Source: Candidatus Dojkabacteria bacterium | Lineage (GTDB): Bacteria; Patescibacteriota; Dojkabacteria; SC72 | NCBI GenBank assembly: GCA_040773125.1 | Contig: JAXGWV010000002.1 | Coordinates: 1-42,295 of the forward strand | Direction of reading: 5' to 3' | Length of the DNA stretch: 42,295 bases | Shown here: piece after piece, positions 2,482 to 31,290 of the stretch | Numbering within the stretch: the first letter of the stretch is position 1 | Layout of the letters: each line of letters begins with the position of its first letter | Program-made: the position numbers and the translations under genes | The notes under the pieces: model-generated | Seen by the model: only the letters and a program-made list of their open reading frames with translations | Databases searched by the model: none | What the model was told of the DNA's origin: nothing

Positions 2482-2512
2482 GAGTAGTTTGTGTTAATTT
2501 ATGCTTGTAATT

Positions 2513-3199: not shown

Positions 3200-3249
3200 A
3201 ATTACCGTACTATTGTACTAAATTTTGAGAAAGGTTGCATTATTTGTGA

Positions 3250-3266
3250 AATTATATTATCCTAAA
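3250..3266. repeat. left copy of a perfect 17-nt inverted repeat
   Basis: AATTATATTATCCTAAA. Its reverse complement TTTAGGATAATATAATT occurs at 4258-4274. Confidence 0.8.
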
Positions 3267-3300
3267 CTAGTAACTATATAAATTTTAATATAGGTTAAAC

Positions 3301-4239
3301 GTGGCAAAGAAAAAAATTAATTCTGCCAAGAAAAATAATCAAAAAGTGTCTAATTCTTCCAAAGACAGTATGGTGTCTAAGGTTAAAATTAAAGAAAAAA
3401 GAGATCTTTCTCTTTCAAGACTTATAGGGACACTTTTTATTTTATTTGGTTTGCTTTTAATTGGCTACGGAATTTTTTCTTATATTAAAAGCAACAATAA
3501 TCCTCAACTCGACGAATCTCTGTCTGCACCTACTTTGGGAGAGACAGTTACCGCAGTAAATGGGGAAAATATAGTTGTCAAGGGTGTTGCAGAAGGTTTT
3601 AAGAAGGTTCAAGTATATATCGATAATGAACTTGTTGGTACCACTAAGGTTGATAAAGAAGGGAAGTTTGAATTTGCTCATAAAGTAGAAAATGAAGGGA
3701 AATATATTGTTTCTACTTCTGCAATAAAAGGTGCTTTAAAAAAGGTTGTTTCTCCGAAATCAGACCCAATAATTGTTTCCGTTGACAGAACAGCACCTGA
3801 ATTGGCAAAGATTAATTACTTGAAAGAAGTTGGGACAGAAACATTTGCATTGTCAGGAGAGGCAGAGCCAGGAAGTACGGTTGTGGTCAAAAGAGGAACA
3901 GATATTTATGAAACCGAGGTTGGAGATGATGGGAAATTTGTAATTAAAGATATTATTCTTAGAGATGAAGGAGCTAATGTCTTTTCAGTAGTTCTGAGAG
4001 ATAAAGCAGGCAATAGTAAGGAGATAGAAGAAAAAGTTTCTGTTGTATATTCTAAAGATAGTTCTGTAAATGGAAATGCTGTTATAGATGCTGATTTACC
4101 GGTTGCAGCTGGAGAATTAGAATTAGCACTCTCTATTTTAAGAGATGGTCAGATAATGGGAATTATTGGTGTCCTTGCTTTAATAGCCTTTCTTGCTACT
4201 TCTGGGATTATCGTATACAAAAAGAATAGATTACAGTAA
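3301..4239 (+). CDS. membrane-anchored surface protein with two Ig-like beta domains and a C-terminal sorting-signal-like tail
   Basis: GTG start, which is uncertain (alternative ATG at 3370). N-terminal TM segment. Two similar beta-rich segments (VVKGVAEGFKKVQVYIDNELVGTTKVDKEGKFEF and LSGEAEPGSTVVVKRGTDIYETEVGDDGKFVI). C-terminus has LPVAAG (4096-4113), then a hydrophobic helix and a KKNRLQ basic tail. Confidence 0.7.
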   Translation: MAKKKINSAKKNNQKVSNSSKDSMVSKVKIKEKRDLSLSRLIGTLFILFGLLLIGYGIFSYIKSNNNPQLDESLSAPTLGETVTAVNGENIVVKGVAEGFKKVQVYIDNELVGTTKVDKEGKFEFAHKVENEGKYIVSTSAIKGALKKVVSPKSDPIIVSVDRTAPELAKINYLKEVGTETFALSGEAEPGSTVVVKRGTDIYETEVGDDGKFVIKDIILRDEGANVFSVVLRDKAGNSKEIEEKVSVVYSKDSSVNGNAVIDADLPVAAGELELALSILRDGQIMGIIGVLALIAFLATSGIIVYKKNRLQ

Positions 4240-4257
4240 AGGTATTGTGGTATTATA

Positions 4258-4274
4258 TTTAGGATAATATAATT
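4258..4274. repeat. right copy of a perfect 17-nt inverted repeat
   Basis: TTTAGGATAATATAATT, the exact reverse complement of 3250-3266. It contains TATAAT (4268-4273), 13 nt before the AI-2E transporter ATG. Confidence 0.8.
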
Positions 4275-4286
4275 ATTGCAATAAAT

Positions 4287-5390
4287 ATGCCTAAGATTTA
4301 CTCTGTAGAAAGTAAGGATGGTTCGGATTCAAGTGAGCTTCAGAGGGTTCAAATTGATTTATCACCAACTCTACTTGCATTGATTGTCTCAATAATCGCT
4401 CTTATGTTTTGGGGAAAACAATTCATTTCAATATTACTCTTTTTGCTGTTTTCGTTTGTACTCATGTGTGCTATGAGGCCAGTTGTTAATTGGTTTTTAA
4501 AGAAGAAAATGTCCAAAAATGTTGCAATATTTCTTTCATATTTTTCCCTTTTGGTTTTCCTTCTTGTCATTTTAGCAATAATCTTTGTTCCTTTTGTTAA
4601 TCAGATAGGTGGATTTTTTGAAGCATTACCTGAATGGATATCAAAATTATTAAGTTCCATAAATGGTTTAAATATTAATGGTCTTAAGATAGATAGTTCG
4701 TCAATTGAGAAATCTGTTTCCGATTGGGTTGGTTCTCTAACTACATCAGCTAATGTCAAAAGTCTAACAACTACTCTTGGAGGATTCTTCAGTGGTTTTA
4801 CAACTTTGTTGTCAGCAACAGTCTTTTCTATTTATTTGGTATCAGAGCATGACTCTTTGGTGGATATAATTTTTGTTAAAATCCGTTCCAAAGATAGAGT
4901 GCAAAGAGTCAAGCAGTTAATTTTTGATGTGGAAAATAAACTTGGAGGATGGATCTTAGGACAAGGAACAGTTAGTTTGATAGCCACTCTGGTTTCTGTT
5001 GTATTACTGTCCCTTTTTAAAGTTCCTTTTGCCATTCCTTTAGCAGTTTTTGTAGGTCTAATGGATGCAATTCCTAGTATTGGTGCTACTCTAGGGGGAA
5101 TAGCTGTCGGAATTGTTTCTCTCATCACACTTGGTCCGCTTAATGCATTTATAATATTAATTCTCATGATTGTTTATCAACAGATTGAGAACAATTTTAT
5201 TATTCCAAAAGTTATGGGAAATGTTGTTGGAGTCAAACCTTTCTATGTGATGGCCGGAGTTGTCATTATGCTTATCATTGCTGGTCCATTAGGAGCTGTT
5301 GTTGCGGTTCCAATAATTGTGTTAATTAAAATTCTTTATGAATTCTATATAGACTTGCAAAAAATAGAAGCGAAAGGTATTGTTAATTAA
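4287..5390 (+). CDS. AI-2E family (PerM/UPF0118) transporter
   Basis: 367 aa, multiple TM helices. Family-typical C-terminal motif YQQIENNFIIPKVMG. Confidence 0.85.
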   Translation: MPKIYSVESKDGSDSSELQRVQIDLSPTLLALIVSIIALMFWGKQFISILLFLLFSFVLMCAMRPVVNWFLKKKMSKNVAIFLSYFSLLVFLLVILAIIFVPFVNQIGGFFEALPEWISKLLSSINGLNINGLKIDSSSIEKSVSDWVGSLTTSANVKSLTTTLGGFFSGFTTLLSATVFSIYLVSEHDSLVDIIFVKIRSKDRVQRVKQLIFDVENKLGGWILGQGTVSLIATLVSVVLLSLFKVPFAIPLAVFVGLMDAIPSIGATLGGIAVGIVSLITLGPLNAFIILILMIVYQQIENNFIIPKVMGNVVGVKPFYVMAGVVIMLIIAGPLGAVVAVPIIVLIKILYEFYIDLQKIEAKGIVN

Positions 5391-5421
5391 GAAGATTTAA
5401 GTTTTTTACTGCCCGAGATAA

Positions 5422-7959
5422 ATGAGTAATGAAACTTCAAAAAAACCTAAGGTATTCTTTTTTGATGACTACTCTGCGAAAGAATTGAATGAAGACAAGG
5501 TTGGAAGAAAGGGATTAAGTCTTTTCAGGCTTAAAGATATGGATGTCCCGGTCCCAGAATTTTTTGTCATATCAAGTGATGTTTTTGTTGAGCATTCTTT
5601 AAAAGTATTTAAAAGAAACAAAGAGAAACTACTTGGCAAAGGAAAGAATCCAGAAGCTTTTGAGATTGAATCAATGATGGTTAACGAATCATTAGACAAG
5701 GAAGCACAAGAAGAAATACTTTCTGCATATACAAGATTATCTGGTTTTACTGATGCTTGGGTTTCAGTAAGATCTTCTGTAGTTTTTCCAAATAATAAAG
5801 ATGTGTCATTTACTGGGATTTTTTCAACTGAGCTAAATGTAAGAAAATATGATGAGTTATTACCATCAATTAAAAGAATTTTTTCTTCAATGTTTTGCGA
5901 TGATGTTGTGGCATATGCAAAAAGAATGAATATTGATATTGCAGATGTCAAAATGGCGGTTGTCGTTCAAAAAATGGTTCAGTCTGAAGTGGCAGGTATT
6001 GTATATACAGTTGACCCAATTAGTCAGGAGAAAACGAAATTAAACATTGAGGCTGTTTATGGATTAGGTGATGTAATTTCTTTGGGCGAAGTAACCCCAG
6101 ATACGTATTTATTAAACAAAAAAGATCTTTCAACTGTTGAAAAACATATTGCTCCTCAAGAGTGGATGAAAGTTAGGACTATGAAACAAGTTAAAAAAAT
6201 GAATCAAGGTGTTGAAAAGATAAAAATTTCCAAAGGTTGGAGTCATAAGCAGAAATTGTCAGACAAGGACATTCAAGAAATATCCAAGATTGCCTTAGTT
6301 ATTGAAGATAGAAGTGGTGAAGCCCAAAGTATCGAATGGGTTCTCTCTGGAGGAAGATTTTGGGTTTTGCAAAACAAACCCGTAAGGTTTAAATCACTAG
6401 ATTATGAAATACAAAGCGAAATTGCTATTGATGTTCGACCAAATGTAAGAGAGGAAATTCTTGGCTTTATCGAAAAATTTGACATCAAAGAAGAAATGAT
6501 TTCTTCAGCAATGACAGAAGCAAAAAATATTGTGCAGAAAAACAATGACGAAGATATTAAACGACTTGAGAAATTAATAGTTCAGGCAAGAAAGGAACTT
6601 GATGCTGAAATAAATAAGCAGGAGACTAGGAGAGAAGATTTCGTTATTTCTGGTATAGGAGCAAGTTTTGGTACAGTAACAGGCAAAATAAATATTGTTG
6701 ATGGCCCAGTAGATAAGAAATATACAAAGGAAGATATACTATTAATCAAGAGATACTCATCGGAAATGGAGAAAATGATTCTTTCTTCAGGTGGAATAAT
6801 TATGGAAACTGGTGGGCTAACGAGTGATACGGCAATCCTATGCAGGGAATTTAAGATTCCTGCAGTTGTTGGGGCAGCTACTGCTTCTTCGCTGCTTAGT
6901 GATGGGGATATTGTTAAACTTGATGGAAATTCAGGAACCGTATACAAGAGCTCTAAATTAGCCGATGAATTGAAGAAAGGACCCCACCCCATTGCGGATG
7001 TATATGCTCGTGGGGATGTTAATTTGTCAATGACTTCTGAGGAAGGAATAGATGATACTTCTATTCCACCAAAAGATATTACTTTACCACCAACAGCGAC
7101 TAGGATTTTCTCTTTAGTTGATAGAGAGCCCAAAAAACTATTTGATTTTGTAGGGAATTCCAATGGTCTTGTATATATTGATTTAGATAAAATAATGATT
7201 GAAGATGGTCGCCACATTCTGCAGTATGTTGAAGACAAAAAGTTTGTAGATTATTCAAAAAAAATATGTAATACCATTCTTGAATATGTTAATTTAGCGA
7301 AAGGTGATGAAGTTGTCATCTCTATAGGTTCAGCAAAAGTTAAAGATTTCCGAGGATTAGTAGGAGGAAAGAAATATGAAGATGAATCTCTTTCCCCAGA
7401 TGCTTACGGAGCAATCCATTATGCAAGTAATCCAGAGCTTCTCAAAAGAGTTGCTAGGATAATCAGGAAGCTTCGAAATGTTTACAAGAAGAGGAATATT
7501 TCTTTAGCTATACACTCTCCAATGAATGAAGATGTAATTAAGGAGATAAAAAAGCTGCTTTTAAGTGAAAAGCTTAGAAGAATGTCCTCTTTTAATTTGT
7601 ATGTAATATTGGATAATCCTTCAGAAATAATTCTTGTTGATGAGATAGTTAATACTAATCTTGATGGAGTAATCTTAAATACTCCAAGAGTAGCAATGCA
7701 GATGCAAGGTTTTAAAGTAGATGAAAAAGATGCAAAATATGATTTAGCAAGATCTAGTATCTTTAAAGTTTTAGATAATATAAACTCATCTGTAAAAGGG
7801 AAAACTGGTCGAGTTATTGTCATAGCGGAGGATAACAAACCTCTACTTAAATACTGTGTACAAGCTGGAGTCTATGGAGTGTCAGTATCGCCAGAATATA
7901 TTTCTGAAGCTAGAAGGATTGTAGCGGATGAAGAAGGCAAAATAATACTCGGTAAATAG
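5422..7959 (+). CDS. PEP synthase / pyruvate phosphate dikinase-like three-domain protein with a non-canonical swivel domain (His replaced by Asp)
   Basis: ATP-grasp N-domain motifs (WVSVRSS, VVQKMV, YGLGD, IEWVLSGGRFWVLQNKP). PEP-utiliser mobile-domain motif GGLTSDTAILCREFKIPAVVG. C-terminal TIM-barrel-like region ending GVYGVSVSPEYISEARRIV. Confidence 0.8.
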   Translation: MSNETSKKPKVFFFDDYSAKELNEDKVGRKGLSLFRLKDMDVPVPEFFVISSDVFVEHSLKVFKRNKEKLLGKGKNPEAFEIESMMVNESLDKEAQEEILSAYTRLSGFTDAWVSVRSSVVFPNNKDVSFTGIFSTELNVRKYDELLPSIKRIFSSMFCDDVVAYAKRMNIDIADVKMAVVVQKMVQSEVAGIVYTVDPISQEKTKLNIEAVYGLGDVISLGEVTPDTYLLNKKDLSTVEKHIAPQEWMKVRTMKQVKKMNQGVEKIKISKGWSHKQKLSDKDIQEISKIALVIEDRSGEAQSIEWVLSGGRFWVLQNKPVRFKSLDYEIQSEIAIDVRPNVREEILGFIEKFDIKEEMISSAMTEAKNIVQKNNDEDIKRLEKLIVQARKELDAEINKQETRREDFVISGIGASFGTVTGKINIVDGPVDKKYTKEDILLIKRYSSEMEKMILSSGGIIMETGGLTSDTAILCREFKIPAVVGAATASSLLSDGDIVKLDGNSGTVYKSSKLADELKKGPHPIADVYARGDVNLSMTSEEGIDDTSIPPKDITLPPTATRIFSLVDREPKKLFDFVGNSNGLVYIDLDKIMIEDGRHILQYVEDKKFVDYSKKICNTILEYVNLAKGDEVVISIGSAKVKDFRGLVGGKKYEDESLSPDAYGAIHYASNPELLKRVARIIRKLRNVYKKRNISLAIHSPMNEDVIKEIKKLLLSEKLRRMSSFNLYVILDNPSEIILVDEIVNTNLDGVILNTPRVAMQMQGFKVDEKDAKYDLARSSIFKVLDNINSSVKGKTGRVIVIAEDNKPLLKYCVQAGVYGVSVSPEYISEARRIVADEEGKIILGK

Positions 7960-7996: not shown

Positions 7997-10600
7997 ATGA
8001 ATGATACTCCAATGATGAAGCAATTTTTAAGTTTTAAGAAACAGTATCCTGATAAAATTGTTCTTTTTAGGATGGGGGATTTCTTTGAAACATTTGGTGA
8101 AGATGCAAAAACTGCTTCTAAAGTTTTAAATATTACACTTACAAAAAGGGATAAAAAAGAGAATGCTACTCCACTAGCTGGATTTCCCCATAAAGCAATC
8201 GATCAGTACCTTCCCAAGTTTATTGATGCTGGATACTGTGTTGTAGTTGTTGATCAACTTGAAGATCCTAAATTCGCAAAAGGTATTGTTAAGAGAGGGG
8301 TTACTAGAATTGTCACCCCAGGTACTGTAGATGGGGAGGAAGCAAACATCACAAGAAATTCATACTTAGCATCTTTTTATTTTTCAAAAAAGAAAATAAT
8401 TGTTTCACTTGCGGATATAACTACTGGAGAGTTTATTTTGTTAAAGGAAGGTTTTGAGAATAGCTATGTTAATTCTGTTCTTTCAGCTTTCAATCCAGCT
8501 GAAATATTACTTCTAGAAGGACAAAGTAATGAGCTCTTATCTACACTTCCTGTTCAATTCCTTGATAAGAGATTTGAGAATATAAAATATTGTGAAGAGA
8601 TAATTAAAGATTTCTTTGAGATAAACACAACAGATTCAGTTGGAATAGAAAAAGACTCTGAAGAGACGATTCCTGTTGCTATGATTTTGCACTATATCTC
8701 ACAGACTCAGATGATGAATCCAAAACATATCTCAAAGCCAATGAAAGTATCTTTGGACAAAACAATGATCCTTGACAGAGCGACGGTTAGAAACCTTGAG
8801 CTAACTAATAACTATTACTCTGGGACAATGGAAAATTCCCTCTACTCTATTCTTAATAATACCAATACACGAATGGGAGCGAGATTGTTGTATAGCTGGA
8901 TACTTAGTCCATTGATTTCAAAAAAAGAAATAGATGAAAGGCTAGATATTGTTGACAAATTCTTTCAAAACGAGAATGCATTAAGCTCTGTGAGAGAGAA
9001 ATTGGAAGGAATAAATGATATGGAAAGAATTGTGGGTAAAATTGGCCTAAACAGAGTGAATGCTAGAGATCTTAAAGCTTTGCAATTATCCTTAGAATAC
9101 TCATTGGAGGTTCTTGATGAATTGGAAAATGTCCTAAAAATTAAATATCATGGATTAGAAAAGGGTTTCTTTAAAGAATTAGCCAATAAGATTTCCAAAT
9201 TCATAGTAGATAACCCGCCTAATACTATTTCTGAAGGTGGAATAGTTAGAGATGGCTATAGCAAGGAAATTGATGAGTTAAAATCCTTATCTAAAAACAG
9301 TAGAATTTGGTTAGAAGAATTTGAAGAGAAGGAAAGGAAATCTACAGGCATTTCTTCATTGAAGGTAAGTTACAATAATGTCTTTGGCTATTATATTGAA
9401 GTTACTAAAGCTCATTATAATAAAGTTCCTGAAAGATATATTAGAAAACAAACTCTTGTAAATTCAGAGAGATTTATTACTCAGGAGTTAAAAGAAAAAG
9501 AGGAGATAATACTTAATGCTCATGAGAAACTTTCTCAGTTGGAGTTAAAACTGTTTAATGAATTTAGAGAAACTCTCCTTCCAAATCTTGAGAAACTTAA
9601 GGAGCTTTCTAAGAAAATAGCATTTATTGATGTTTTGGCAAACTTCGCATATACAGCAAAACAGTTGGATTATGCTAAGCCTGAAATTTTTGAAATGGGT
9701 GAAAAGGATGGTGTAATTCATATAGAAAAAGGTCGTCATCCAATCATTGAATCTTTTGATAAAAGTAATTTTATCTCAAATAATACAGACCTATCTTTCA
9801 AAGAGGGAAGAATGTGTATACTCACTGGTCCCAATATGGCTGGGAAATCTACATATATTAGACAGGTAGCTACAATTGTATTAATGGCGCAGATAGGATC
9901 TTTTGTGCCAGCTAAGAAAGCAGAAATCTCAATAGTGGACAGAATATTTACGAGGGTTGGAGCATCAGATGATTTGACTAGGGGAAGAAGTACTTTTATG
10001 GTAGAAATGGATGAGGCGGCAAATATAATTAACAATGCCTCAAAATACAGCTTAATTGTTCTTGATGAGGTAGGAAGAGGTACGAGTACTTATGATGGGG
10101 TTAGTATTGCATGGGCATTGGCCGAGTATATAGTTAAAGAGCTTAAAGCTAGAACTCTTTTTGCTACACATTATCATGAACTTTTGAAACTTTCTGAGAA
10201 GTTCCCTTCTGAAGTAAAAAATTACAATGTTTTAGTTGAAGAAGATATTGAGAAGGGAGAAGTAATCTTTCTAAGAAAAATAGTAGAGGGAGGAACAGAT
10301 AGAAGTTATGGTATATATGTGGCGAAAATGGCAGGATTACCAGAAAAGATTATTAAGAGAGCAAACCAAATATTAGAAGGATTTGAGCAAAATATGCTTT
10401 TTCCTCAAAAAAATAGTATTAGAGAGGGAACCTTCTCTTCAAAAGAGAGAGACAGGCTAACTTCTAATATGGCACAACAATATCCTCTTTTTAGTGCAAA
10501 AAATTCTATTGTTGAAAAAGAGATTCAGGAAATTGATACAGATAATCTAACCCCATTAGAGGCTTTGAAGAAAATTGCCGAATGGAAAAAGAAAGTCTAG
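7997..10600 (+). CDS. mutS: DNA mismatch repair protein MutS
   Basis: 867 aa. N-terminal TPMMKQF...GDFFETF mismatch-binding motif, Walker A GPNMAGKST, Walker B LDEVGRGTST. Confidence 0.95.
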   Translation: MNDTPMMKQFLSFKKQYPDKIVLFRMGDFFETFGEDAKTASKVLNITLTKRDKKENATPLAGFPHKAIDQYLPKFIDAGYCVVVVDQLEDPKFAKGIVKRGVTRIVTPGTVDGEEANITRNSYLASFYFSKKKIIVSLADITTGEFILLKEGFENSYVNSVLSAFNPAEILLLEGQSNELLSTLPVQFLDKRFENIKYCEEIIKDFFEINTTDSVGIEKDSEETIPVAMILHYISQTQMMNPKHISKPMKVSLDKTMILDRATVRNLELTNNYYSGTMENSLYSILNNTNTRMGARLLYSWILSPLISKKEIDERLDIVDKFFQNENALSSVREKLEGINDMERIVGKIGLNRVNARDLKALQLSLEYSLEVLDELENVLKIKYHGLEKGFFKELANKISKFIVDNPPNTISEGGIVRDGYSKEIDELKSLSKNSRIWLEEFEEKERKSTGISSLKVSYNNVFGYYIEVTKAHYNKVPERYIRKQTLVNSERFITQELKEKEEIILNAHEKLSQLELKLFNEFRETLLPNLEKLKELSKKIAFIDVLANFAYTAKQLDYAKPEIFEMGEKDGVIHIEKGRHPIIESFDKSNFISNNTDLSFKEGRMCILTGPNMAGKSTYIRQVATIVLMAQIGSFVPAKKAEISIVDRIFTRVGASDDLTRGRSTFMVEMDEAANIINNASKYSLIVLDEVGRGTSTYDGVSIAWALAEYIVKELKARTLFATHYHELLKLSEKFPSEVKNYNVLVEEDIEKGEVIFLRKIVEGGTDRSYGIYVAKMAGLPEKIIKRANQILEGFEQNMLFPQKNSIREGTFSSKERDRLTSNMAQQYPLFSAKNSIVEKEIQEIDTDNLTPLEALKKIAEWKKKV

Positions 10601-11214
10601 ATTGAAATAACGTAATTATATCCTCTCCTTTTTTTAATCAACCGTAGTCCCATTGCTTCAATGCATTTTTTGTTTATTCTGCATACAGTTACTTGAAGTG
10701 CGGGTGAAGATTTTCTTGAATCAATACTGTTAGACATTATTGCCTTCATAGTTTCGAATTCTGAATCTGTTAAAAGTACTTTACAATGGTTATATGTAAC
10801 AGATTTTGATACATTTGACAAAGAAATTCCCCTGTATACCAACTCTTGACATTCTTTAGTGATTAATAAACCTAAATATTTTCTAATTAGGCATAATAGG
10901 AATGAATAATTAATTGGTGTGAAAAGGATATTATCGGCATTATTTTGTATCATTTTCTCAATATTTCTTTGAGAAGAGTCTCTAGATAGATAAATAATTT
11001 TTGTGTGGCAATACTTTGGAAGTACATCTAAATCCTCATAGAATCTTTGATCAATAATTATTAATTCCGCTCTTAATTCGTCCAAGAGCTCCTTCTTGTT
11101 TAGAAATAACCTAACAGATACATTAAAAGAGTAAAGATCACTTCGTAGCCGTTCAATAAGTGATTGATCCTTCGAAAAAATAAAAACATTTTTTTCATTA
11201 TATGCTTTCATCAA
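10597..11214 (-). CDS. OmpR/PhoB-like winged-helix protein with an atypical receiver-like N-terminal domain
   Basis: C-terminus resembles the OmpR effector domain (LTDSEFETMKAIM ... RINKKCIEAMG ... RRGYNYVI). The N-terminal half has a candidate acceptor Asp (LIIIDQ), but the acidic pair and the conserved Lys (FTP instead of KP) look degenerate. By-eye call. Confidence 0.45.
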   Translation of the reverse strand: MMKAYNEKNVFIFSKDQSLIERLRSDLYSFNVSVRLFLNKKELLDELRAELIIIDQRFYEDLDVLPKYCHTKIIYLSRDSSQRNIEKMIQNNADNILFTPINYSFLLCLIRKYLGLLITKECQELVYRGISLSNVSKSVTYNHCKVLLTDSEFETMKAIMSNSIDSRKSSPALQVTVCRINKKCIEAMGLRLIKKRRGYNYVISI

Positions 11215-11231
11215 TTCAGATACTGAATAAA

Positions 11232-12524
11232 TTACTTGTTTTGTATTTTAGCTATTACTTCTTTAATATTTAGAGAAAATTGTTCTTTTGTTCTCATATT
11301 TTTAAGCATAAGTGTATTAGAATATATTTCATCCTCTCCTATTATTGCAACCCAAGTAAAATTCTTCTTGTCTGCGTATTTTAATGAGTCTTTAAGTTTT
11401 ACGAAATCTGGATAGATAGAGGTTTGAATATTTTGATCTCTTAGTGATTTAGCAGTAGAAAGTACAAAAGGAATAGATTTTTCTTCCAGAGGAATAATTA
11501 ATATAGAGGGATTTTCTTTCTCTTTGAACATATTCATCTGCTTCATTACCTCCGTTAATCTCTCAAGACCAAAAGAAGTTCCTGTAGCAGGTATTTCTTT
11601 ACCAATATATTTACTGATAGCTTTGTCATATCTTCCACCTCCACTTACTGAGCCAATATTTCCTTCTGTTATCTCAAACTCCCAGATAGCCCCAGTGTAA
11701 GAGGCTAAGCCTCTAGCCAATGAGAGGTCAAACACAACCTTGTTCTCCTCTACTTCTTTAATAAATGAAAGAATCGATTTGACACTATTTATTCCTCTTT
11801 TTCCCTCTGTTGAGGAATTTATGGTATCGCTTATTTTATCAATGTCTTTAATCTTAATAATTTTAAGGAGCTCTGTGACTTTCTCCTCTTCAATCTTTGA
11901 ATCATCTATAAGAATCTCTTTTACCTTCTCTTCTCCAATCTTCTCAATTTTGTCAATTGCAATATATATATCCTCAAATTTGTCTTTTTCAATTCCAAGA
12001 ATTTCGACAATCCCTTGTATAATCTCTCTACTGTTTAGTCTTACTCTGAAATTTTCAAATCCTAATTTTTTTAGAAAGGATATACCAAAGAGAATCACCT
12101 CTGCATCAGCAAAGGGGGAACTACTACCTAAAATATCAACATCCATTTGGGTAAATTCTCTCAATCTTCCTCTTTGGACATTTTCAGCTCTCCAAGCATT
12201 TTGGATTTGGTATCGTTTGTATGGCAAGGAGATGTTGTTGATATTCTGTGCAACAGCTCTGCACATTGGAATCATTAATTCGTATTTGAGCATCACATCT
12301 CTTCCTCCATTGTCCTGAAATTTATAATAGAGTTTTTCAGCCTCAGCACCACTTTGACCAAGTATTAATTCCGAATATTCTAAGGCAGGAGTTTCTAAGG
12401 GTTCAAACCCATATTTTTCTGCAACTTCTCTAAAAGAGTCTTTGATGAAATTACGAATTCTCATATCATCCGAGAAGTAATCATAAAAGCCTTTTAATGT
12501 TTGTGGTTTCATTCCGTTTTTCAT
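11232..12524 (-). CDS. hisS: histidine--tRNA ligase
   Basis: 430 aa class II aaRS. Motifs RYQIQNAWRAENVQRGRLREFTQMDVD and GGGRYD, plus a C-terminal anticodon-binding domain. Confidence 0.93.
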   Translation of the reverse strand: MKNGMKPQTLKGFYDYFSDDMRIRNFIKDSFREVAEKYGFEPLETPALEYSELILGQSGAEAEKLYYKFQDNGGRDVMLKYELMIPMCRAVAQNINNISLPYKRYQIQNAWRAENVQRGRLREFTQMDVDILGSSSPFADAEVILFGISFLKKLGFENFRVRLNSREIIQGIVEILGIEKDKFEDIYIAIDKIEKIGEEKVKEILIDDSKIEEEKVTELLKIIKIKDIDKISDTINSSTEGKRGINSVKSILSFIKEVEENKVVFDLSLARGLASYTGAIWEFEITEGNIGSVSGGGRYDKAISKYIGKEIPATGTSFGLERLTEVMKQMNMFKEKENPSILIIPLEEKSIPFVLSTAKSLRDQNIQTSIYPDFVKLKDSLKYADKKNFTWVAIIGEDEIYSNTLMLKNMRTKEQFSLNIKEVIAKIQNK

Positions 12525-12615
12525 AGATGATTATATCATATGTTTAACAACTAGTACTCTTACAAATATATAATTACTTGATATTTTTGTCCAAATGAGG
12601 GCATAATATACGGAT

Positions 12616-22120: not shown

Positions 22121-22433
22121 AATTTTATCTAAGAAATTTAATTAAAAAAGTGTTAATGGAAAAGCACACATTAAAAAGTGTGTGTTGTAAAAACTATTCT
22201 ATTTAGAATTGATTTGTTTGTTCCGTTTATTCTATACACATTGAGTATTTTATATTTTTATATTCTTTTTTGCAATGGGAAGGGTGTAATAAGATACAAA
22301 GTACAAATTCTTTAAGATGACAAATGATTGTCTCAGCAAGTGATTTTTTGAAAGATTCAGTCTTGTTCTCTCTCACTTCAATATTTCTTTGACAATGTAT
22401 TCTATTGCTTGTTGATGGAATTATTAAAATTAC

Positions 22434-22865
22434 CTAGTTTGTGTACAGGTTTTCTTTTGTTTTTTCAAGAATAATTCGCAAATCATCAAATGTTATTTTT
22501 TGAATTGCCTCTTCTAATGAGAACCATCTCCCTTCTAAATGCTCATCATCCATTTCTTTTGTTGGAACCAATTTGTCATCAAGAAGTTTAAAAAGATAGA
22601 ATGTAACAGTCTTTTCTATTTCTTCTCCTGTGTTAGGGTGTACGAAGGAAAAGTGGTGAATATATATTGGTTCTTCCTTAACAACTTCAAAGTTATGATA
22701 TCCTGTTTCTTCTTCTGTTTCTCTTTTTGCAGCTGTTAATGCATCCTCTCCTTCCTGTATCCCACCCTTTGGTAGTATCCATTCATTTCTAACAATTTGG
22801 TGAAGTAAGTATACTTCGTTTTTTTGATTTAGGAGAATACCTCCAGCTGAAAAATGTTTTTTCAT
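22434..22865 (-). CDS. Nudix hydrolase
   Basis: 143 aa with a complete Nudix box, GGIQEGEDALTAAKRETEEETGY. Confidence 0.9.
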   Translation of the reverse strand: MKKHFSAGGILLNQKNEVYLLHQIVRNEWILPKGGIQEGEDALTAAKRETEEETGYHNFEVVKEEPIYIHHFSFVHPNTGEEIEKTVTFYLFKLLDDKLVPTKEMDDEHLEGRWFSLEEAIQKITFDDLRIILEKTKENLYTN

Positions 22866-22880
22866 AAATAATAAGAATAT

Positions 22881-23615
22881 TTATTTTAAATACGGTATGA
22901 AGTATTCTACTAGTTTATCTACTTCATGGGAATAACCATTGACGGGAATTATCTTGAAATTAGGAAACTTCTCTTTAAGAAAAAATTTGTCTATGTATAT
23001 ATCCTCCCTGCCATAAAGAACTATCCCATTCTTTTCTTGAGTAATACTTTGTTCTAGTCCAGAAAACCATGTTATTAACTCTAAATCATTAATACCTCGG
23101 TAGATATTGGAATATACCTTAGAAGAGAGAAAACTTAATTTTTGTTTCCAATAAAGCCTTTGTTTGTCTTGGGAGACATTAAACATGGGGGAAACAAGTA
23201 GAAATTTTGTATTAGGCAAATAGTCCTTGTCTTTTTTTAACAAAAAATCGAATAAAACATTTGCTCCAAAACTTAAACCGAAAATCCAATCAATATTGTT
23301 GTTACTGATTTTATATTTTTTATTTTCGAAATAATCATAAATTTCTCCATTTTCAATTAATTTTATTGTCTCATTTGTTGTTTGTAATATGTTGTTTAGG
23401 GAAAACCTCTTGTAAGAATGGAACGATCCAGGGTAGTAAGGTGCAATTATTGAGTATGTTTCTATTAGGGTTTTTAGATAATTTTGCTTGAATATATATT
23501 GAGGGAGACCAGATAAAAGAATTATCCAGGGCTTACTTAAATCGCTGAAATAAAAGTTATACACAATACCCTTAATCAGTGTTTTTCTTACATACAAGTT
23601 TGTTTGTTTATACAT
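22881..23615 (-). CDS. alpha/beta-fold hydrolase (Ser-Asp-His type)
   Basis: 244 aa. Nucleophile elbow GLSFG, oxyanion-region LLSGLPQ, candidate Asp (GREDIY) and His (GYSHE). Its start overlaps the upstream ORF by 8 nt. Confidence 0.6.
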   Translation of the reverse strand: MYKQTNLYVRKTLIKGIVYNFYFSDLSKPWIILLSGLPQYIFKQNYLKTLIETYSIIAPYYPGSFHSYKRFSLNNILQTTNETIKLIENGEIYDYFENKKYKISNNNIDWIFGLSFGANVLFDFLLKKDKDYLPNTKFLLVSPMFNVSQDKQRLYWKQKLSFLSSKVYSNIYRGINDLELITWFSGLEQSITQEKNGIVLYGREDIYIDKFFLKEKFPNFKIIPVNGYSHEVDKLVEYFIPYLK

Positions 23616-24306
23616 TTGAATATCTTTTACTTATATAATCTAAAAATTGTTCTGAGAAATTAAAAATATTTTTCGCATAGTTATTGTATTCTTCTAAAGT
23701 ACTAGTAGTTTTTTTCCATTTATTTACATCGTTAATAATCGTAAAATCATTATTAAAATCCTTGAAAAGCTTTAGGCATATCTCTCTCGACGGGATATTT
23801 ACAGTGTCTTCAAGTAAGCAAGCAAGCAAAATTATATGTTGGAAACATTTTGCTACTTCCTTGAAGAGTTCAAATCCATGTAAGTTCCTAACGGAGTATC
23901 TGAGTCTATCTTTAAATGATGTCAATTGTATAAGTAAATATTTTGTATGTTTGGGTAGGTCTACTTGTACCTCTTTAATATCACCAAAGACAATTTTTGA
24001 TATTTGAAATCTGAAATTATATTTGATTAAATTTGCCTTGTGGGACACAAATTCGCAGCTTTTAGAGTTGTATTCTTTTTCTGTTAGGTATGAGGGCCCT
24101 ATCTTAATTGAGTGTCTTTGACTTGTTTCAAGGCATTTATTATTGATAGATTTTACATCCTTAAATATTATTTCTCTCAAAACAAATAGGAGATCTATAT
24201 CGCTCCAACCGTCTATGAAATTATTTGTATTATAACTACCACTCATAATTATCCCCAATATATTTTTATCTGTTTTGCCTATATGAATAATTTCTTCTTT
24301 TATCAT
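23608..24306 (-). CDS. Pol-beta superfamily nucleotidyltransferase (KNTase/ANT-like) with a helical C-terminal domain
   Basis: 232 aa. NTase signature MSGSYNTNNFIDGWSDIDLLFVL (G-S ... D-x-D). The helical C-terminal half contains RYSVRNLH, an R-x6-H, HEPN/KNTase-C-like pattern. Its start shares 1 nt with the upstream stop. Confidence 0.75.
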   Translation of the reverse strand: MIKEEIIHIGKTDKNILGIIMSGSYNTNNFIDGWSDIDLLFVLREIIFKDVKSINNKCLETSQRHSIKIGPSYLTEKEYNSKSCEFVSHKANLIKYNFRFQISKIVFGDIKEVQVDLPKHTKYLLIQLTSFKDRLRYSVRNLHGFELFKEVAKCFQHIILLACLLEDTVNIPSREICLKLFKDFNNDFTIINDVNKWKKTTSTLEEYNNYAKNIFNFSEQFLDYISKRYSNV

Positions 24307-25070
24307 TAAGTTGCATCTATAAAATTAATATTTTGGTAAATATCCTCTAATGTTGGTTTTATATCATTGACATTCTTTATAAAAAGTTTAATTACAGGGA
24401 TGTTTAATTCGTAGTCTTCAAATTTTTGGAGTTCACTCCTTAAATCCTTATGAGATTTTGTTTCATCCTTGAGTGAAAAAGTAAGATGATCATACTGTGG
24501 GTTGAGGTATTTAATGATATGGCCATATAAAGTTGATTTTATCAGCATTTTCTTTTCTTCCTCAACTGGAATAACGACTTCAGTCTTATTAGCGTTCATG
24601 TATGGAACAATTATAAGATTTAGAATATTTTTTTCAATTATTTTAAAATAATCATTGGCAAAGATAATTCTAGGATCTCTTAAGATGAGAGAGTATTCTT
24701 CTTTTAGAAACATAGAACTATCTCCTTTAAGATTTATTGGGATGTCCCCATTCCCAAAAACCAATTTCGTTTTTGTTTCTATCAATGTGTATTCATCACA
24801 TAAATATTTCCCTGATTCAGCCGCGGTTGATAATGACAGAAGTGTCTTCCCAGAAGCTATGTTCCCATCGTCTCCAAATAAAACACAATTGCCATATTTT
24901 GTAACAGCACATGAGCCATGTAATACAAAATAACTTCTATTTTCTATTGCGAATGATCGGTACATTACCTGAAATAGAGAAAGCAGATTTCTGTCCCTTA
25001 TTTTATTGTGAAATTTATTCCTTAAATCTTTTGAGTTTCTATTTATTGCATCTTTAATTTCCTCGCTCAT
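24306..25070 (-). CDS. HPr-kinase-like P-loop protein
   Basis: 254 aa. VLHGSCAVTKYGNCVLFGDDGNIASGKTLLSL lines up by eye with the HprK C-terminal core (HG..v..G.GVL..G.SG.GKS..AL). Walker A GNIASGKT. Confidence 0.6.
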   Translation of the reverse strand: MSEEIKDAINRNSKDLRNKFHNKIRDRNLLSLFQVMYRSFAIENRSYFVLHGSCAVTKYGNCVLFGDDGNIASGKTLLSLSTAAESGKYLCDEYTLIETKTKLVFGNGDIPINLKGDSSMFLKEEYSLILRDPRIIFANDYFKIIEKNILNLIIVPYMNANKTEVVIPVEEEKKMLIKSTLYGHIIKYLNPQYDHLTFSLKDETKSHKDLRSELQKFEDYELNIPVIKLFIKNVNDIKPTLEDIYQNINFIDAT

Positions 25071-25503
25071 CTTTTTCGTATGGAATTATAAAATTGGATA
25101 AGATCTCATATTCTCTTTCGAAGTCTTCAGGATCTGAAACGTGTAAAACATTTTTTATGTAAGACGATTCTCCTTCTTCGGATGTTACTTCACAAGAAGA
25201 CCACTCCCCTCTCATCCCTGTTCCTTTATAGGAATTTCCTTTTACTTCCCGACATTTCTCATAACAGTCCTCGCCCTCCCATACGGTTAGTAGGCAAGGG
25301 CCTTCTTGTAGATAATCTAAGATATATGGGAAGAACCATTGATTTACATATTTTTTGTAGAGCTTACGAATTGCTTCGTCTGTAAGCATAACTAAGTCCG
25401 CACTTAATAGATGTAAATCTTTTTCACACAGCCTTTCAATCATTGTATCCCCAAGAGATAATGCTAGTCCATCTGGTTTGAGCATCACAATAGTTTTTTC
25501 CAT
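25054..25503 (-). CDS. divergent nucleoside-diphosphate-kinase-like protein
   Basis: 149 aa. NDK landmarks are retained: IVMLKPDG, GPCLLTVWEGE, GMRGEW and the catalytic-His motif NVLHVSD. No obvious Shine-Dalgarno sequence. Confidence 0.75.
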   Translation of the reverse strand: MEKTIVMLKPDGLALSLGDTMIERLCEKDLHLLSADLVMLTDEAIRKLYKKYVNQWFFPYILDYLQEGPCLLTVWEGEDCYEKCREVKGNSYKGTGMRGEWSSCEVTSEEGESSYIKNVLHVSDPEDFEREYEILSNFIIPYEKDERGN

Positions 25504-25586
25504 ATGGCAAGGTTTTTAATTTATCTTAGTGGCTTTCTAGCTCCCAGAAAAACAATTTCTCTTTGCAATCCAAGGGCCCATAGTTA

Positions 25587-25615
25587 ATTATATGCGTTTC
25601 ACCCTCGCGTGGCAA
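25587..25615 (-). promoter_or_regulatory. candidate sigma70-type promoter for the NDK-like five-gene operon
   Basis: The minus strand reads TTGCCA-17 nt-TATAAT. It is about 85 nt upstream of the ATG at 25503, in a 170-nt intergenic gap. Confidence 0.5.
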
Positions 25616-25673
25616 GTATATACCCAAGAATCTTTTTTATGAAGTCTGAAGAAGTAGGAGAAAAAGTGAGAAC

Positions 25674-26426
25674 CTATAGCAGGGCTCCTCCATTAACACC
25701 AAGATTCTCTCCATGTATATAACTAGCCTTTTCAGACAGAAGGAAAATGACAGCATCAGCAATATATTCAGGTTTCCCAAGTCTTCTTAGGGGTATTTTA
25801 TTTTTTTGCTCTTGTATACGCTTCTTACTCCATGTTTTTAAAGAAAGAGGTGTTAAAGTTAAAGAGGGACTAATACTATTAACTCGAATATTGTATTTAG
25901 CAAGTTCAATAGCGCAACACTTAGTGAAATTTATTATTGCAGCTTGAGAAGAAGAATAAGCACAAGTATTTGCGTTAGGCCTTGTACCTAATCGAGAAGA
26001 GATATTAATAATTGAGGGATTTTTTGAAAGTTTTAGGAGGGGAATAGCATGTTTTGTACATAGAAACTTTCCAATTAAATTTACATTTACTATTCTTTTA
26101 AATTCTTCAGTGCTAAAAAATTCAATAGGACTGTCTGAACTGATTCCAGCATTATTAATTAGAAAATCGAGATAATTAAATTCTTTCCTTATTTTCTTAA
26201 ACATTCTTGATACTTCTTCCTCATTTGTAATATTCGCTCTAATAATTTTTACTTGACTTTCGTATTTGCTAAATTTTTTTAGGACTTGTTTTGCTCTTTT
26301 TTCATCATTCGCGTAATTTAAAATTACTGTGCATCCACTTTCCAGCAATTTATTTGCAATTTCTACACCAATACCTGAAGTTGATCCTGTAACAAGAGCA
26401 ATCTTCCCCTTTAAAAAATCGTCCAT
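25674..26426 (-). CDS. short-chain dehydrogenase/reductase (FabG-like) with a non-canonical active-site motif
   Basis: 250 aa. TGSTSGIG cofactor motif, NNAG, and NISS. The YxxxK position reads YSSSQ. Confidence 0.88.
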   Translation of the reverse strand: MDDFLKGKIALVTGSTSGIGVEIANKLLESGCTVILNYANDEKRAKQVLKKFSKYESQVKIIRANITNEEEVSRMFKKIRKEFNYLDFLINNAGISSDSPIEFFSTEEFKRIVNVNLIGKFLCTKHAIPLLKLSKNPSIINISSRLGTRPNANTCAYSSSQAAIINFTKCCAIELAKYNIRVNSISPSLTLTPLSLKTWSKKRIQEQKNKIPLRRLGKPEYIADAVIFLLSEKASYIHGENLGVNGGALL

Positions 26427-29826: not shown

Positions 29827-31290
29827 TTATTTAACCCTTTCTTTCATATTTTTTCTTATTTTGTTTTTTGTGCTTCTCGAATTTGCGTATTCTAGGGTGG
29901 TATCTTTTTGATAGGATTTATTTTTATTAACTTTTATCTCTACAGTATCTCCCGTAACTAGTTTCTGAGCTAATTTGGCTGGTAATCCATTTACTTTTGC
30001 ACTTTCGGCCTTGTTACCTATATCTGTATGAAGTCTAAAAGCAAAATCCAATACGGTGTCTCCTTTATCAAGTGCAATTATTTTTCCTTTTGGAGTAAAT
30101 ACAAAAACCTCATCATCAAAGATCTTACATCTTATTGGGAATGATTTAGATTTTTTATTCTCAATTTTACTTTTTTCAATTTCATCCTGAATTTTTTTAA
30201 CCCAATCATATTTGTTAGTTGGCTTTGCATACCTTAATTGACTTGCTTTGTAGGCTATATGAGAAGCTTTCCCAAAAGTATTCTCTTTATACATATCCTC
30301 AGTTACTATCTGAAGCTCAATATTCATTTTGGATATTTGAGGGAAACATATTGGGAATTGAATTGCTTTGTATCCGTTTGGTTTTGGATTTGATATGTAG
30401 TCATCAAATCTTTCTTCAATTATTTCTCCCTTATCCATCAACTTTTCAAGTATCTCGTAACAGGAATCTATATCGGAAGTAATAATTCTAAAAGCTATTA
30501 GATCATCTAGTCTACTAATATTGGGGTCTATCCATTCTTTCTCATATTTTTTTAATTTATTGTAAATACTGTATTTACTCTTTATCCTTTGCTCAATACG
30601 GGCCTTAATTCTTGATTCTCTGATTCTTAGGAGTATCTCTTTTTTGTATTTTTCTAAGAGCTCTTCTGAGATGCCCAATGACTCCATTTTTTTTGAGATA
30701 CTTCTATACTCAATCGGAAGATAGTATGAAAATGCTTTCTCTTCGAGTTCTTTTTTTAAATCTTCCAGATAAAGATACTCAGCTAAAACCCCGTAAATAT
30801 TTAATGCTTTAAAAAGTTTGCTTTTTTTCTGCTCATCTGGGATTTCATCAAAAGAGCGAATGTCGTGTAGTGTGTCATATATTTTTAAATATAATGGTCT
30901 TAAATCCTTAGAAACATTTAGAACATATTTGATAATTATTTCAGGGTTAGTGTCGACACTATCTGTCCCTCTTTTAATTTTCTTAATACCATTAAGAATT
31001 TCCATTACATCGTCAGAAAAATACTTGTGGATTTCTTCTTCTATTGTTTCGTTAAGTTCAATCTCATGTAACAGAGTTGCAATTGCAGTATTTAAATCCA
31101 GTCCTTTTTCTAGAAGAGAAATTGCAATTTCGAGGACATGATTTATCATTGGAACTCCATTGAATCTAGTTTTGCCTTTGTATTTTTCCTCGGCATATGA
31201 GACAGCTTCTTTTAAATCCTTTGTAAAATTCAAAGGAGCTAGGGAATATAGCCTGCTTTTTAGTACACCAGTTGATGTTTGTTTTTCCAT
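29827..31290 (-). CDS. RelA/SpoT homologue (short; synthetase and TGS domains, degenerate HD domain)
   Basis: 487 aa. Synthetase motifs RIKSKYSIYNKL, DLIAFRIIT, DYISNPKPNGYKAIQ, ELQIVTEDMY. TGS-like FVFTPKGKIIALDKGDTVLDFAFRLHTDIG. The HD position reads LLHEIELNE. Confidence 0.88.
   Translation of the reverse strand: MEKQTSTGVLKSRLYSLAPLNFTKDLKEAVSYAEEKYKGKTRFNGVPMINHVLEIAISLLEKGLDLNTAIATLLHEIELNETIEEEIHKYFSDDVMEILNGIKKIKRGTDSVDTNPEIIIKYVLNVSKDLRPLYLKIYDTLHDIRSFDEIPDEQKKSKLFKALNIYGVLAEYLYLEDLKKELEEKAFSYYLPIEYRSISKKMESLGISEELLEKYKKEILLRIRESRIKARIEQRIKSKYSIYNKLKKYEKEWIDPNISRLDDLIAFRIITSDIDSCYEILEKLMDKGEIIEERFDDYISNPKPNGYKAIQFPICFPQISKMNIELQIVTEDMYKENTFGKASHIAYKASQLRYAKPTNKYDWVKKIQDEIEKSKIENKKSKSFPIRCKIFDDEVFVFTPKGKIIALDKGDTVLDFAFRLHTDIGNKAESAKVNGLPAKLAQKLVTGDTVEIKVNKNKSYQKDTTLEYANSRSTKNKIRKNMKERVK

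Follow-up and report, generated by a model that had tools for sequence, protein, structure and literature searches.

What do five tightly packed enzyme genes do together in a bacterium of the Candidate Phyla Radiation (CPR, Patescibacteria), and do they form a unit at all? The question is raised by a 42,295-nt stretch of Candidatus Dojkabacteria bacterium DNA (contig JAXGWV010000002.1 of assembly GCA_040773125.1; the whole stretch is called the window below). Its minus strand carries, in transcription order, genes for a nucleoside-diphosphate kinase-like (NDK-like) protein (25054..25503, 149 aa), an HprK/PEPCK-fold P-loop phosphotransferase (24306..25070, 254 aa; the kinase below), a probable Pol-beta-type nucleotidyltransferase (NTase; 23608..24306, 232 aa), a putative alpha/beta-hydrolase (22881..23615, 244 aa) and a Nudix hydrolase (22434..22865, 143 aa). 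This cassette is a lineage-restricted (CPR/Patescibacteria) accessory enzyme module with a conserved core made up of four of the five genes. We tentatively propose that it makes and edits a nucleoside diphosphate (NDP)-linked metabolite, NDP-X.

An earlier reading of the letters alone (the sequence-only reading) had picked out the same five open reading frames (ORFs). The ORF list reproduces their coordinates exactly, together with the overlaps of 17, 1 and 8 nt and the 15-nt gap (junctions of -17, -1, -8 and +15 nt in transcription order). Every motif quoted there was located in the translations, which carry KNVLHVSD (NDK-like protein), FGDDGNIASGKT with LHGS before it (kinase), GS-x10-SDIDL (NTase), GLSFG with a later D and SHE (hydrolase) and the Nudix box GGIQEGEDALTAAKRETEEETGY. 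Its remark that no operon of this composition has been described agrees with our literature search, which found no paper on the gene set; nor was anything relevant found on HPr kinase, Nudix, NDK and NTase combined with either defence or CPR. PADLOC, NCBIfam and Pfam likewise place none of the cassette genes in a characterised pathway.

The simplest answer would be that the five genes have no joint function and were packed by chance in a compact genome. CPR genomes are gene-dense, overlapping genes are common in them, and NDK and Nudix proteins belong to ordinary housekeeping families. The three middle families, however, are extremely rare and occur essentially only inside the module. Among 5.8 billion proteins, five further clusters were found for the kinase and twelve clusters in total for the hydrolase, and a word-indexed search yielded three for the NTase. 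The cassette is represented by about 12 orthologue clusters in 1.84 billion representatives, and of 185,579 species genomes just two have a relative, WWE3 (a candidate division) being one of the two. The order NDK - kinase - NTase - hydrolase - Nudix is common to all loci with enough flanking DNA, namely L005/L004 (syntenic with the window), L002/L003, L006/L012 (WWE3) and L007/L008 (a 1.1-Mb Patescibacteria contig). Both gene order and tight junctions are kept in at least eight independent lineages with the window-type (type-1) cassette, with differing flanks; the NTase and hydrolase genes overlap by 8 nt in five of the lineages and by 22 nt in another two. Since the same genes, order and junctions recur in independent CPR lineages whose cassette proteins share 25-61% identity, the arrangement is far beyond chance. 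The partners also co-occur despite rearrangements, strand inversions, gene fusions, unrelated flanks and very distant relationship, and we regard accidental packing as having a very slim chance of being the right explanation.

Conservation is accompanied by fast divergence. Cassette proteins of the window share 46-61% identity with those of L005, and the flanking proteins compared share 63-83% (except for the adjacent short-chain dehydrogenase/reductase, SDR, at 56%), which makes the cassette a maintained but faster-evolving accessory unit. A co-directional NDK gene is absent in three lineages (L001, L009-L011 and L013). We considered that NDK is simply missing there and provisionally rejected this, as these loci have instead a divergently transcribed gene of 213-221 aa with KPD...RNLIH motifs, 53% identical between L001 and L009, which is weakly NDK-like (Pfam 0.0025-0.07, hhalign 1e-4, local HMM 4e-5 to 3e-4). 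In L002 (295-2879), a transketolase gene and a second, unrelated alpha/beta-hydrolase gene (Abhydrolase_11) lie directly upstream of the cassette NDK gene.

How far does the module extend beyond the window-type cassette? An exhaustive profile search of 1.84 billion representatives has found 85 relatives of the kinase (12 at E<1e-30), about 50 of which are 305-325 aa long and have an N-terminal extension. Several distant relatives, with kinases matching the family profile at E of 1e-40 to 1e-24, have NDK, NTase and Nudix partners in rearranged gene orders. L014/L015 read SAM (S-adenosylmethionine)-methyltransferase - NDK (4-nt overlap) - kinase::Nudix - family 2 glycosyltransferase (GT2) - NTase - 3-dehydroquinate (DHQ)-synthase-like protein, and the NTase encoded there is a full-length homologue of the one in the window (hhalign 97%, E=4.5e-11). 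In L017 the order is DHQ-synthase-like - Nudix - 390-aa protein - methyltransferase fragment - 143-aa protein - kinase::Nudix - NTase. In L021, the kinase gene is convergent to a series coding for a DHQ-synthase-like protein, NTase, Nudix, an NDK::P-loop fusion and a methyltransferase. L022 has the plain order NDK - NTase - kinase - Nudix, while in L019/L020 two AbiEii modules are followed immediately by kinase - Nudix - 151-aa mini-NTase - NDK. L018 (Logan ERR14794628_7018, 5230-7204) codes for kinase::Nudix, a 148-aa Polbeta NTase and NDK. The mini-NTases of L018 and L019/L020 are homologous (E=5e-15), and the NTases of L014, L021 and L018 match NTP_transf_2 or Polbeta at 3e-5 to 5e-3. Natural kinase::Nudix fusions are represented by P0034, P0043 and P0055, of which P0043 clusters with a Candidatus Magasanikbacteria protein.

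Because the set of NDK-like protein, HprK-fold kinase, Pol-beta NTase and Nudix persists in distant relatives through fusions and rearrangements, this quartet is the conserved functional unit. The sequence-only reading had treated all five genes as one unit; their conserved co-occurrence stands, and the core has narrowed to the quartet, with the hydrolase as an accessory of one subtype. In other genomes, too, genes for NDK-like and Nudix proteins lie together with homologues of the kinase and the NTase. The kinase::Nudix and NDK::P-loop kinase-like fusions argue that the quartet enzymes act on one metabolite pool. The type-2 relatives add a DHQ-synthase-family sugar-phosphate cyclase and a SAM-methyltransferase, joined by GT2 in L014/L015; the DHQ-synthase-like protein matches AroB at 3e-41 and next 2-deoxy-scyllo-inosose synthase at 7e-28. 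Such a set is of the kind that makes a carbocyclic or sugar moiety and hands it on as an activated donor.

Further features were seen in the same loci. The 325-aa fusion of L021 (4722-5699, minus strand) consists of an NDK domain and a C-terminal P-loop kinase-like domain with a weak CoaE/AAA_18 match, and the 390-aa neighbour in L017 has a similar weak AAA_18 match. In L019 (GCA_964516505.1, a CPR-type metagenome-assembled genome), the AbiEii modules are arranged in tandem at 2402-5713, each preceded by a smaller gene (190 aa + AbiEii and 217 aa + AbiEii), and an Abhydrolase_11 gene is also found near this compact block. A Band_7 gene and an RNA ligase gene are located just downstream of the quartet-type block of L018.

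What do the individual enzymes tell us? For the kinase, an AlphaFold2 (AF2) model built with six orthologues has pLDDT of 87.7 and pTM of 0.88, and Foldseek matches it in PDB only to HprK/P (1kkm, 1ko7, 1knx; probability ~1.0) and PEPCK, with a modest TM-score (~0.5 target-normalised, 0.37 query-normalised). Among viral models (BFVD), a giant-virus PEPCK is the sole significant match (E=1.1e-3; the rest at E>2). No Pfam family, including Hpr_kinase_C (PF07475) and Hpr_kinase_N (PF02603), is matched at E<=1, and the only NCBIfam match is TIGR04352, "HprK-related kinase A" (HprK_rel_A), at E=0.027 with a cut-off of 200 bits. Residues R38, H51, S53, G66, D67, K75 (the Walker A lysine), D92, E93, K187 and D194 are invariant in 18 relatives down to 18% identity, a pattern to be expected of an active phosphotransferase. 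The model thus confirms the HprK-like call of the sequence-only reading at the level of predicted fold, the kinase being an HprK/PEPCK-fold P-loop phosphotransferase of a new family that has no Pfam model. At 254 aa, with an N-terminus that is helical in the model, it does not have the two-domain architecture of bona fide HprK/P, and no HPr-like ORF was found in the 42-kb window.

The NTase is laid out as an N-terminal minimal NTase domain followed by a C-terminal helical domain. Besides the GS-x10-SDIDL motif, in which S35-D36-x-D38 is invariant among orthologues, its assignment as Pol-beta-type is supported by profile matches that stay below the Pfam gathering scores: Adenyl_transf (ANT(6)) at 6e-4, NTP_transf_2 at 2e-3 and Polbeta at 2e-3, with 18-19.5 bits against cut-offs of 21-27. 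The best PDB match of the family profile is 9xbd, a 120-aa "nucleotidyltransferase domain" protein (E=0.005).

As streptomycin adenylyltransferase ANT(6) is the best Pfam match (E=6e-4) and the architecture of an N-terminal NTase plus a helical C-terminal domain is ANT-like, the module could be suspected of inactivating a hydroxyl-rich antibiotic (aminoglycoside, lincosamide or macrolide) produced by neighbours, or of self-protection from it. Phosphorylation, nucleotidylation and ester hydrolysis of the drug would then be divided between kinase, NTase and esterase, three classical drug-modifying activities. The ANT match, however, spans just 45 residues below threshold, and none of the five proteins reaches an NCBIfam cut-off, the only resistance-type match being Vat at E=0.058 (for the Nudix protein); for this reason ANT/APH-type resistance was dropped as an assignment. 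We know of no role for NDK and Nudix in known resistance, no plasmid copies were found in PLSDB, and both the copy on a phage-like contig and the linkage to a cyclase and GT2 in type-2 relatives fit poorly. We consider drug resistance highly improbable.

The two outer genes belong to well-defined families, and here the earlier calls passed Pfam thresholds. The NDK-like protein matches PF00334 at 3e-19 (69.7 bits against a cut-off of 27), and a profile search of PDB leads to solved NDKs at 1e-19. K9, Y52, T95, R98, N118, H121 (the catalytic histidine), S123 and E131 are invariant in four orthologues, and the stretch from the T-G-x-R motif to N-x-x-H is divergent. None of the NCBIfam ndk equivalogs is reached (best 66.9 bits against a cut-off of 155). 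As it lies far under every one of these cut-offs, we describe the protein as a divergent, paralogue-like nucleoside-diphosphate kinase that retains the catalytic histidine and its partners. The Nudix protein matches PF00293 at 5e-21 (75.5 bits against 21.1), and its box fits GX5EX7REUXEEXGU. Its nearest solved relatives are the Ap4A hydrolases 3i7u (3.7e-12), NUDT2, Ndx1 and CT771, and its best NCBIfam matches are RppH models, all below cut-off; it is closest to the Ap4A-hydrolase/RppH-like clade.

This affinity to Ap4A hydrolases brings up nucleotide salvage or pool maintenance in an auxotrophic symbiont. Nudix would cleave scavenged dinucleoside polyphosphates or NDP-X to a nucleoside monophosphate (NMP), the HprK-like enzyme would act as an NMP-type kinase, NDK would finish the synthesis of the nucleoside triphosphate (NTP) and the NTase would consume the product. 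CPR bacteria rely on salvage, and raised NTP pools would benefit a phage. The kinase::Nudix and NDK::P-loop fusions would join consecutive steps, and HprK-like kinases from clusters for peptides that are synthesised by ribosomes and modified after translation (RiPPs) attach a second and a third phosphate onto a phosphate, a chemistry of the NMP-to-NDP type (PMC6993621, PMC13381572). Salvage nevertheless leaves the NTase, the hydrolase and the cyclase/methyltransferase/GT2 partners unexplained, and a module carried by two of 185,579 species genomes is much too uncommon to be a general CPR route. To our knowledge, no HprK/PEPCK-fold enzyme is a nucleotide kinase. On balance, salvage seems an improbable purpose of the module.

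The hydrolase is found only in the window-type cassette and is an accessory gene of this subtype. GLSFG (G113-L-S115-F-G117), D205 and H230 are invariant in four orthologues and follow the canonical order; across 12 family members GLSFG and D205 remain invariant. Both the NTase and the hydrolase calls of the sequence-only reading are consistent with motifs and sub-threshold profile matches. Two hydrolase homologues, P0012 and P0013 (239 aa), carry the JGI label "UDP-galactopyranose mutase", a sugar-nucleotide label, which is probably an annotation transfer error, since neither their length nor their motifs fit that enzyme.

How could these activities be combined? The reading we favour, with confidence that stays tentative, is that the kinase phosphorylates a hydroxyl, the NTase nucleotidylates the resulting phosphate, NDK supplies the NTP and Nudix reverses the nucleotidylation. 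First, the HprK-like enzyme would phosphorylate a hydroxyl of a substrate X, most likely a sugar- or cyclitol-like small molecule and less likely a protein serine. The NTase would then couple NMP (from NTP) to X-P, giving a pyrophosphate-linked NDP-X, while the NDK-like enzyme would regenerate the NTP needed. Nudix would hydrolyse NDP-X to NMP and X-P, limiting or editing the pool, and the additional alpha/beta-hydrolase of the window-type cassette would release X from an ester or remove an acyl group from it. All five genes would be expressed as a single translationally coupled unit. Nudix enzymes cleave a nucleoside diphosphate linked to a moiety X, and NDK produces non-adenine NTPs. The order of the reactions, proposed with the same reserve, follows by analogy from the only characterised pairs of HprK-like kinase and NTP-transferase: PsmK and LppK of RiPP clusters phosphorylate a serine hydroxyl and a partner then decorates that phosphate, PsmN being an ANT(2'')-like "NTP transferase" that acts on the phosphate made by PsmK (PMC6993621, PMC13381572). 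The kinase::Nudix fusion fits NDP-X because both activities yield X-P, and the cyclase, methyltransferase and GT2 partners of type-2 relatives fit because they could make and consume an X that resembles a sugar or cyclitol. The hydrolase of type 1 fits as well, since X could be freed from an ester. From the menu of functions offered by the sequence-only reading, which settled on no single one, hydroxyl phosphorylation followed by nucleotidylation is now favoured, with defence as its main rival.

A number of points weigh against NDP-X. Classical X-1-P nucleotidylyltransferases have another fold, and Pol-beta/ANT-type enzymes usually nucleotidylate hydroxyls, not phosphates. The GS...DIDL signature put forward in the sequence-only reading held in its DxD part, which is invariant, but G-S is replaced in two of five orthologues (L006 and L001) and no third catalytic carboxylate is evident in the alignment, so some of the NTases may be non-canonical. 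The AF2 model of the NTase (pLDDT 45) is unusable. The alpha/beta fold of the hydrolase is weakly supported: Hydrolase_4 is weakly matched by nine of the 12 family members, all below cut-off (best E=1.3e-3), and a search of PDB sequences gave no match. No cyclase, methyltransferase or glycosyltransferase gene was found near the cassette of the window, which is flanked by genes for aminoacyl-tRNA synthetases, RecG, RelA/SpoT, MutS and a penicillin-binding protein (PBP). A metabolic role alone would not predict that three contexts adjoin defence genes and that one variant sits on a phage-like contig. Finally, the scheme with its hypothetical X is something we infer, and we hold it as possible rather than probable.

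These contexts lead to the main rival, a nucleotide-based anti-phage defence, or counter-defence when carried by phages, which we judge unlikely but by no means negligible. Here the task of kinase, NDK and NTase would be to produce or alter a nucleotide analogue or a signal derived from nucleotides, Nudix would restrain this product or destroy the signal of an invader, and the hydrolase would serve as an effector or processing enzyme. In L007 (the 1.1-Mb Patescibacteria contig) the cassette adjoins a Type I restriction-modification system and a helicase, and in L009-L011 a pair resembling the cyclic-oligonucleotide-based system CBASS, i.e., a SMODS+AGS_C cyclase and a SAVED-domain effector (L009 3902-6662). 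Two AbiEii modules adjoin the L019 block, and kinase::Nudix - mini-NTase - NDK of L018 lies on a contig that is phage-like by its Erf recombinase, ParB-like protein, RNA ligase and large terminase. Patchy and rare distribution, divergence faster than that of the flanks and slightly low GC (0.307 in the cassette and 0.331 on average in the window, which puts the cassette at the 4th percentile among stretches of equal size) would also suit defence. On the other side of the L009 cassette there is a gene for a 1282-aa protein that has no Pfam domain.

Against defence, PADLOC-DB v2 gave no significant match (best PDC-S09 at E=5.7e-4 for the NTase, others at E of 0.0045-0.034), and the module was dropped as a known defence system for this reason, the idea being retained as a rival through genomic context. 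No recognisable sensor or toxic effector is present. Most contexts, including that of the window, have housekeeping or regulatory flanks, and the locus is vertically syntenic. Neither IMG/VR scans nor GenBank phages contained relatives, BFVD gave only the giant-virus PEPCK and PLSDB had no plasmid-borne ones, so that the viral link is a single contig. The cyclase, methyltransferase and GT2 of type-2 relatives look biosynthetic. A bolder version, which we rate as fairly improbable, is that the quartet serves CPR bacteria and their phages as a so far unrecognised system of immunity or counter-immunity that makes a non-canonical nucleotide, possibly a carbocyclic or otherwise modified NTP or an NDP-linked signal in the cyclase-bearing relatives. 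This compound would serve against viruses as a chain terminator or as an alarm molecule, with Nudix as the safeguard or off switch, and phages would have acquired the module in order to undermine it.

The surroundings of the cassette in the window are core housekeeping genes: RelA/SpoT, TyrRS, MgsA, RecG, SpoU, RsmD and SDR on one side, and ThrRS, IF3, PheST, PBP1, HisRS, MutS and a PPDK-like gene on the other. ThrS, MutS and RecG belong to 90%-identity clusters whose named members point to Candidatus Dojkabacteria as the source. The RelA/SpoT homologue (29827-31290, minus strand, 487 aa) has HD, RelA_SpoT and TGS domains and no detected ACT-type C-terminus; its gene is located four genes upstream of the cassette among many aminoacyl-tRNA synthetase genes (Thr, Phe alpha/beta, His, Tyr). 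An ORF of 205 aa with a TTG start between mutS and hisS (10597-11214, minus strand) has no Pfam match at E<=1e-5. The SDR/FabG-like gene (25674-26426, minus strand) is directly upstream of the cassette. With 56% identity between the window and the syntenic L005, it diverges like the cassette genes and unlike the other compared flanking genes, and an SDR gene is also found near the WWE3 cassette (L006 11810-12568). SDR was tried as a sixth member and dropped despite its cassette-like divergence, because it is absent from the remaining loci; it could be a loosely associated partner.

Is the cassette served by its own promoter? A terminator-like hairpin with a T-run at the end of the SDR gene (25669..25688, minus strand; terminator scan) appears to separate SDR from the cassette, which is preceded by a 170-nt spacer. 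In this spacer, 84 nt 5' of the NDK start codon, the promoter-like TTGCCA-17-TATAAT noted in the sequence-only reading is indeed present (25587..25615, minus strand; 11 of 12 positions matched). The hairpin, the spacer and a TG-extended -10 promoter-like site in the SDR-NDK spacer of L005, though its position is not conserved with the window, support a promoter here. Such sites are, however, not above chance in this AT-rich region (19 observed against 22.3 expected from shuffled sequence), and an equally good one lies inside the kinase gene (24637..24610), so a promoter upstream of the NDK-like gene is plausible but statistically not distinguishing.

The 313 nt of non-coding DNA described after the Nudix gene are real (22121..22433, minus strand, from the Nudix stop to the thrS start). 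The corresponding spacer of L005 has 137 nt, and only the thrS-proximal part of about 130 nt aligns with it. Within this shared part, at about 45 nt upstream of the thrS start, there is a hairpin that has a T-run (22184..22165) and may be either a thrS leader or the cassette terminator. The spacer has no Rfam match at E<=1 and no T-box, and a 49-aa ORF within it (22227-22376) is not conserved in L005. With only the thrS-proximal part shared with L005 and no Rfam match, a regulatory RNA, T-box or precursor gene in this spacer was dropped. In L005 itself (10787-12581), thrS is split into ORFs of 87 and 523 aa, apparently through a frameshift or an error of assembly close to codon 75.

A large part of bacterial diversity falls within CPR/Patescibacteria, and for most accessory genes of this group no function has been assigned. 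What is new here is a conserved four-enzyme nucleotide module surviving fusion and rearrangement, in which the kinase family is matched by no Pfam model and the NTase and hydrolase families are matched only at scores below the Pfam thresholds. The pairing of an HprK-like kinase with an NTP-transferase, known so far only as a RiPP tailoring duo of Firmicutes, is extended to a peptide-free context in which NDK and Nudix genes of its own accompany it. If the product is an NDP-linked metabolite, the module would represent a new activation route via folds not normally used for such chemistry and might be a sign that ultra-small symbionts have a pathway for surface glycans or cyclitols. Should the module serve immunity, it would add a new defence based on nucleotides, one of few cases documented in CPR bacteria and in a phage of CPR type. 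The three middle enzymes, small and soluble-looking, lend themselves to direct biochemistry.

Which known systems does the module resemble? With Firmicutes HprK/P the kinase shares the catalytic-domain fold (Foldseek ~1.0), His-x-Ser, the Walker A lysine and the acidic pair. It differs in having no N-terminal HprK domain or Pfam Hpr_kinase match, in its identity of 12-22%, in the signature loop GN..IPINLK and in entirely different operon partners, and there is no sign of HPr as its substrate. The NTase shares the hG[GS]-x(9-13)-DxD motif with MNT (of MNT-HEPN) and ANT-type NTases, where its best matches lie (9xbd at E=0.005; PF04439, PF01909 and PF18765 at ~1e-3) below curated thresholds; unlike MNT-HEPN, the cassette has no HEPN partner.

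At the level of pathways, Kennedy-type and cyclitol routes (LicA-LicC-LicD for phosphocholine, ValC-ValB-ValL for C7-cyclitols) proceed from a kinase through a nucleotidylyltransferase to a transferase. The proposed chemistry has the same order (X-OH to X-P to NDP-X to transfer), and type-2 relatives also have a DHQ-synthase-family cyclase and a glycosyltransferase. Those pathways, however, use other kinase and NTase folds and are not known to have a dedicated NDK or Nudix, and a transferase gene is missing from the cassette of the window. Another comparison is with bifunctional NMN adenylyltransferase/Nudix enzymes (NadM-Nudix), of which KVP40 NatV is the phage version. Here too a nucleotidyl-transferring enzyme is genetically coupled to Nudix and a phage-borne version occurs, but a Pol-beta NTase stands in place of a HIGH-motif Rossmann enzyme, there are no Nampt/NAD-salvage partners, and the cassette Nudix matches NadM-Nudix NCBIfam models at E of 1e-3 or weaker, far below cut-off.

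The closest likeness is to RiPP clusters, in which an HprK/PEPCK-fold kinase gene is likewise found beside a Pol-beta/ANT-like NTase gene (PadeK, PsmK/PsmN, LppK/LppN). This pairing is the hallmark secondary-modification duo of such clusters, with a hydroxyl phosphorylated and a group then added onto the phosphate (PMC6993621, PMC13381572), and the two-step logic proposed here is the same. One could therefore take the cassette for a tailoring set of the paeninodin, pseudomycoidin or Lpp type acting on a ribosomal peptide, and HprK_rel_A as the sole NCBIfam match of the kinase would agree with this. Yet no conserved precursor-like small ORF accompanies the module (small ORFs near the kinase are unrelated between loci), and among Pfam-annotated neighbours in the window and about 15 related loci there is no RiPP recognition element (RRE)/PqqD, lasso cyclase, leader peptidase of the signal-peptidase type or ABC exporter, which bears out the observation of the sequence-only reading that precursor, cyclase and protease are lacking. 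Neither kinase nor NTase matches Pfam Hpr-kinase or NTP_transf_5 at E<=1, and both are below threshold in all relevant Pfam and NCBIfam models. We rejected a RiPP tailoring set on the lack of precursor, RRE, cyclase, peptidase and exporter, and give it hardly any credence. The cassette, unlike RiPP clusters, always carries NDK-like and Nudix genes, and its occurrence is limited to CPR bacteria and a single phage-like contig. By analogy, the module would work most like the RiPP duo of HprK-like kinase and NTP-transferase, without being a member of that system.

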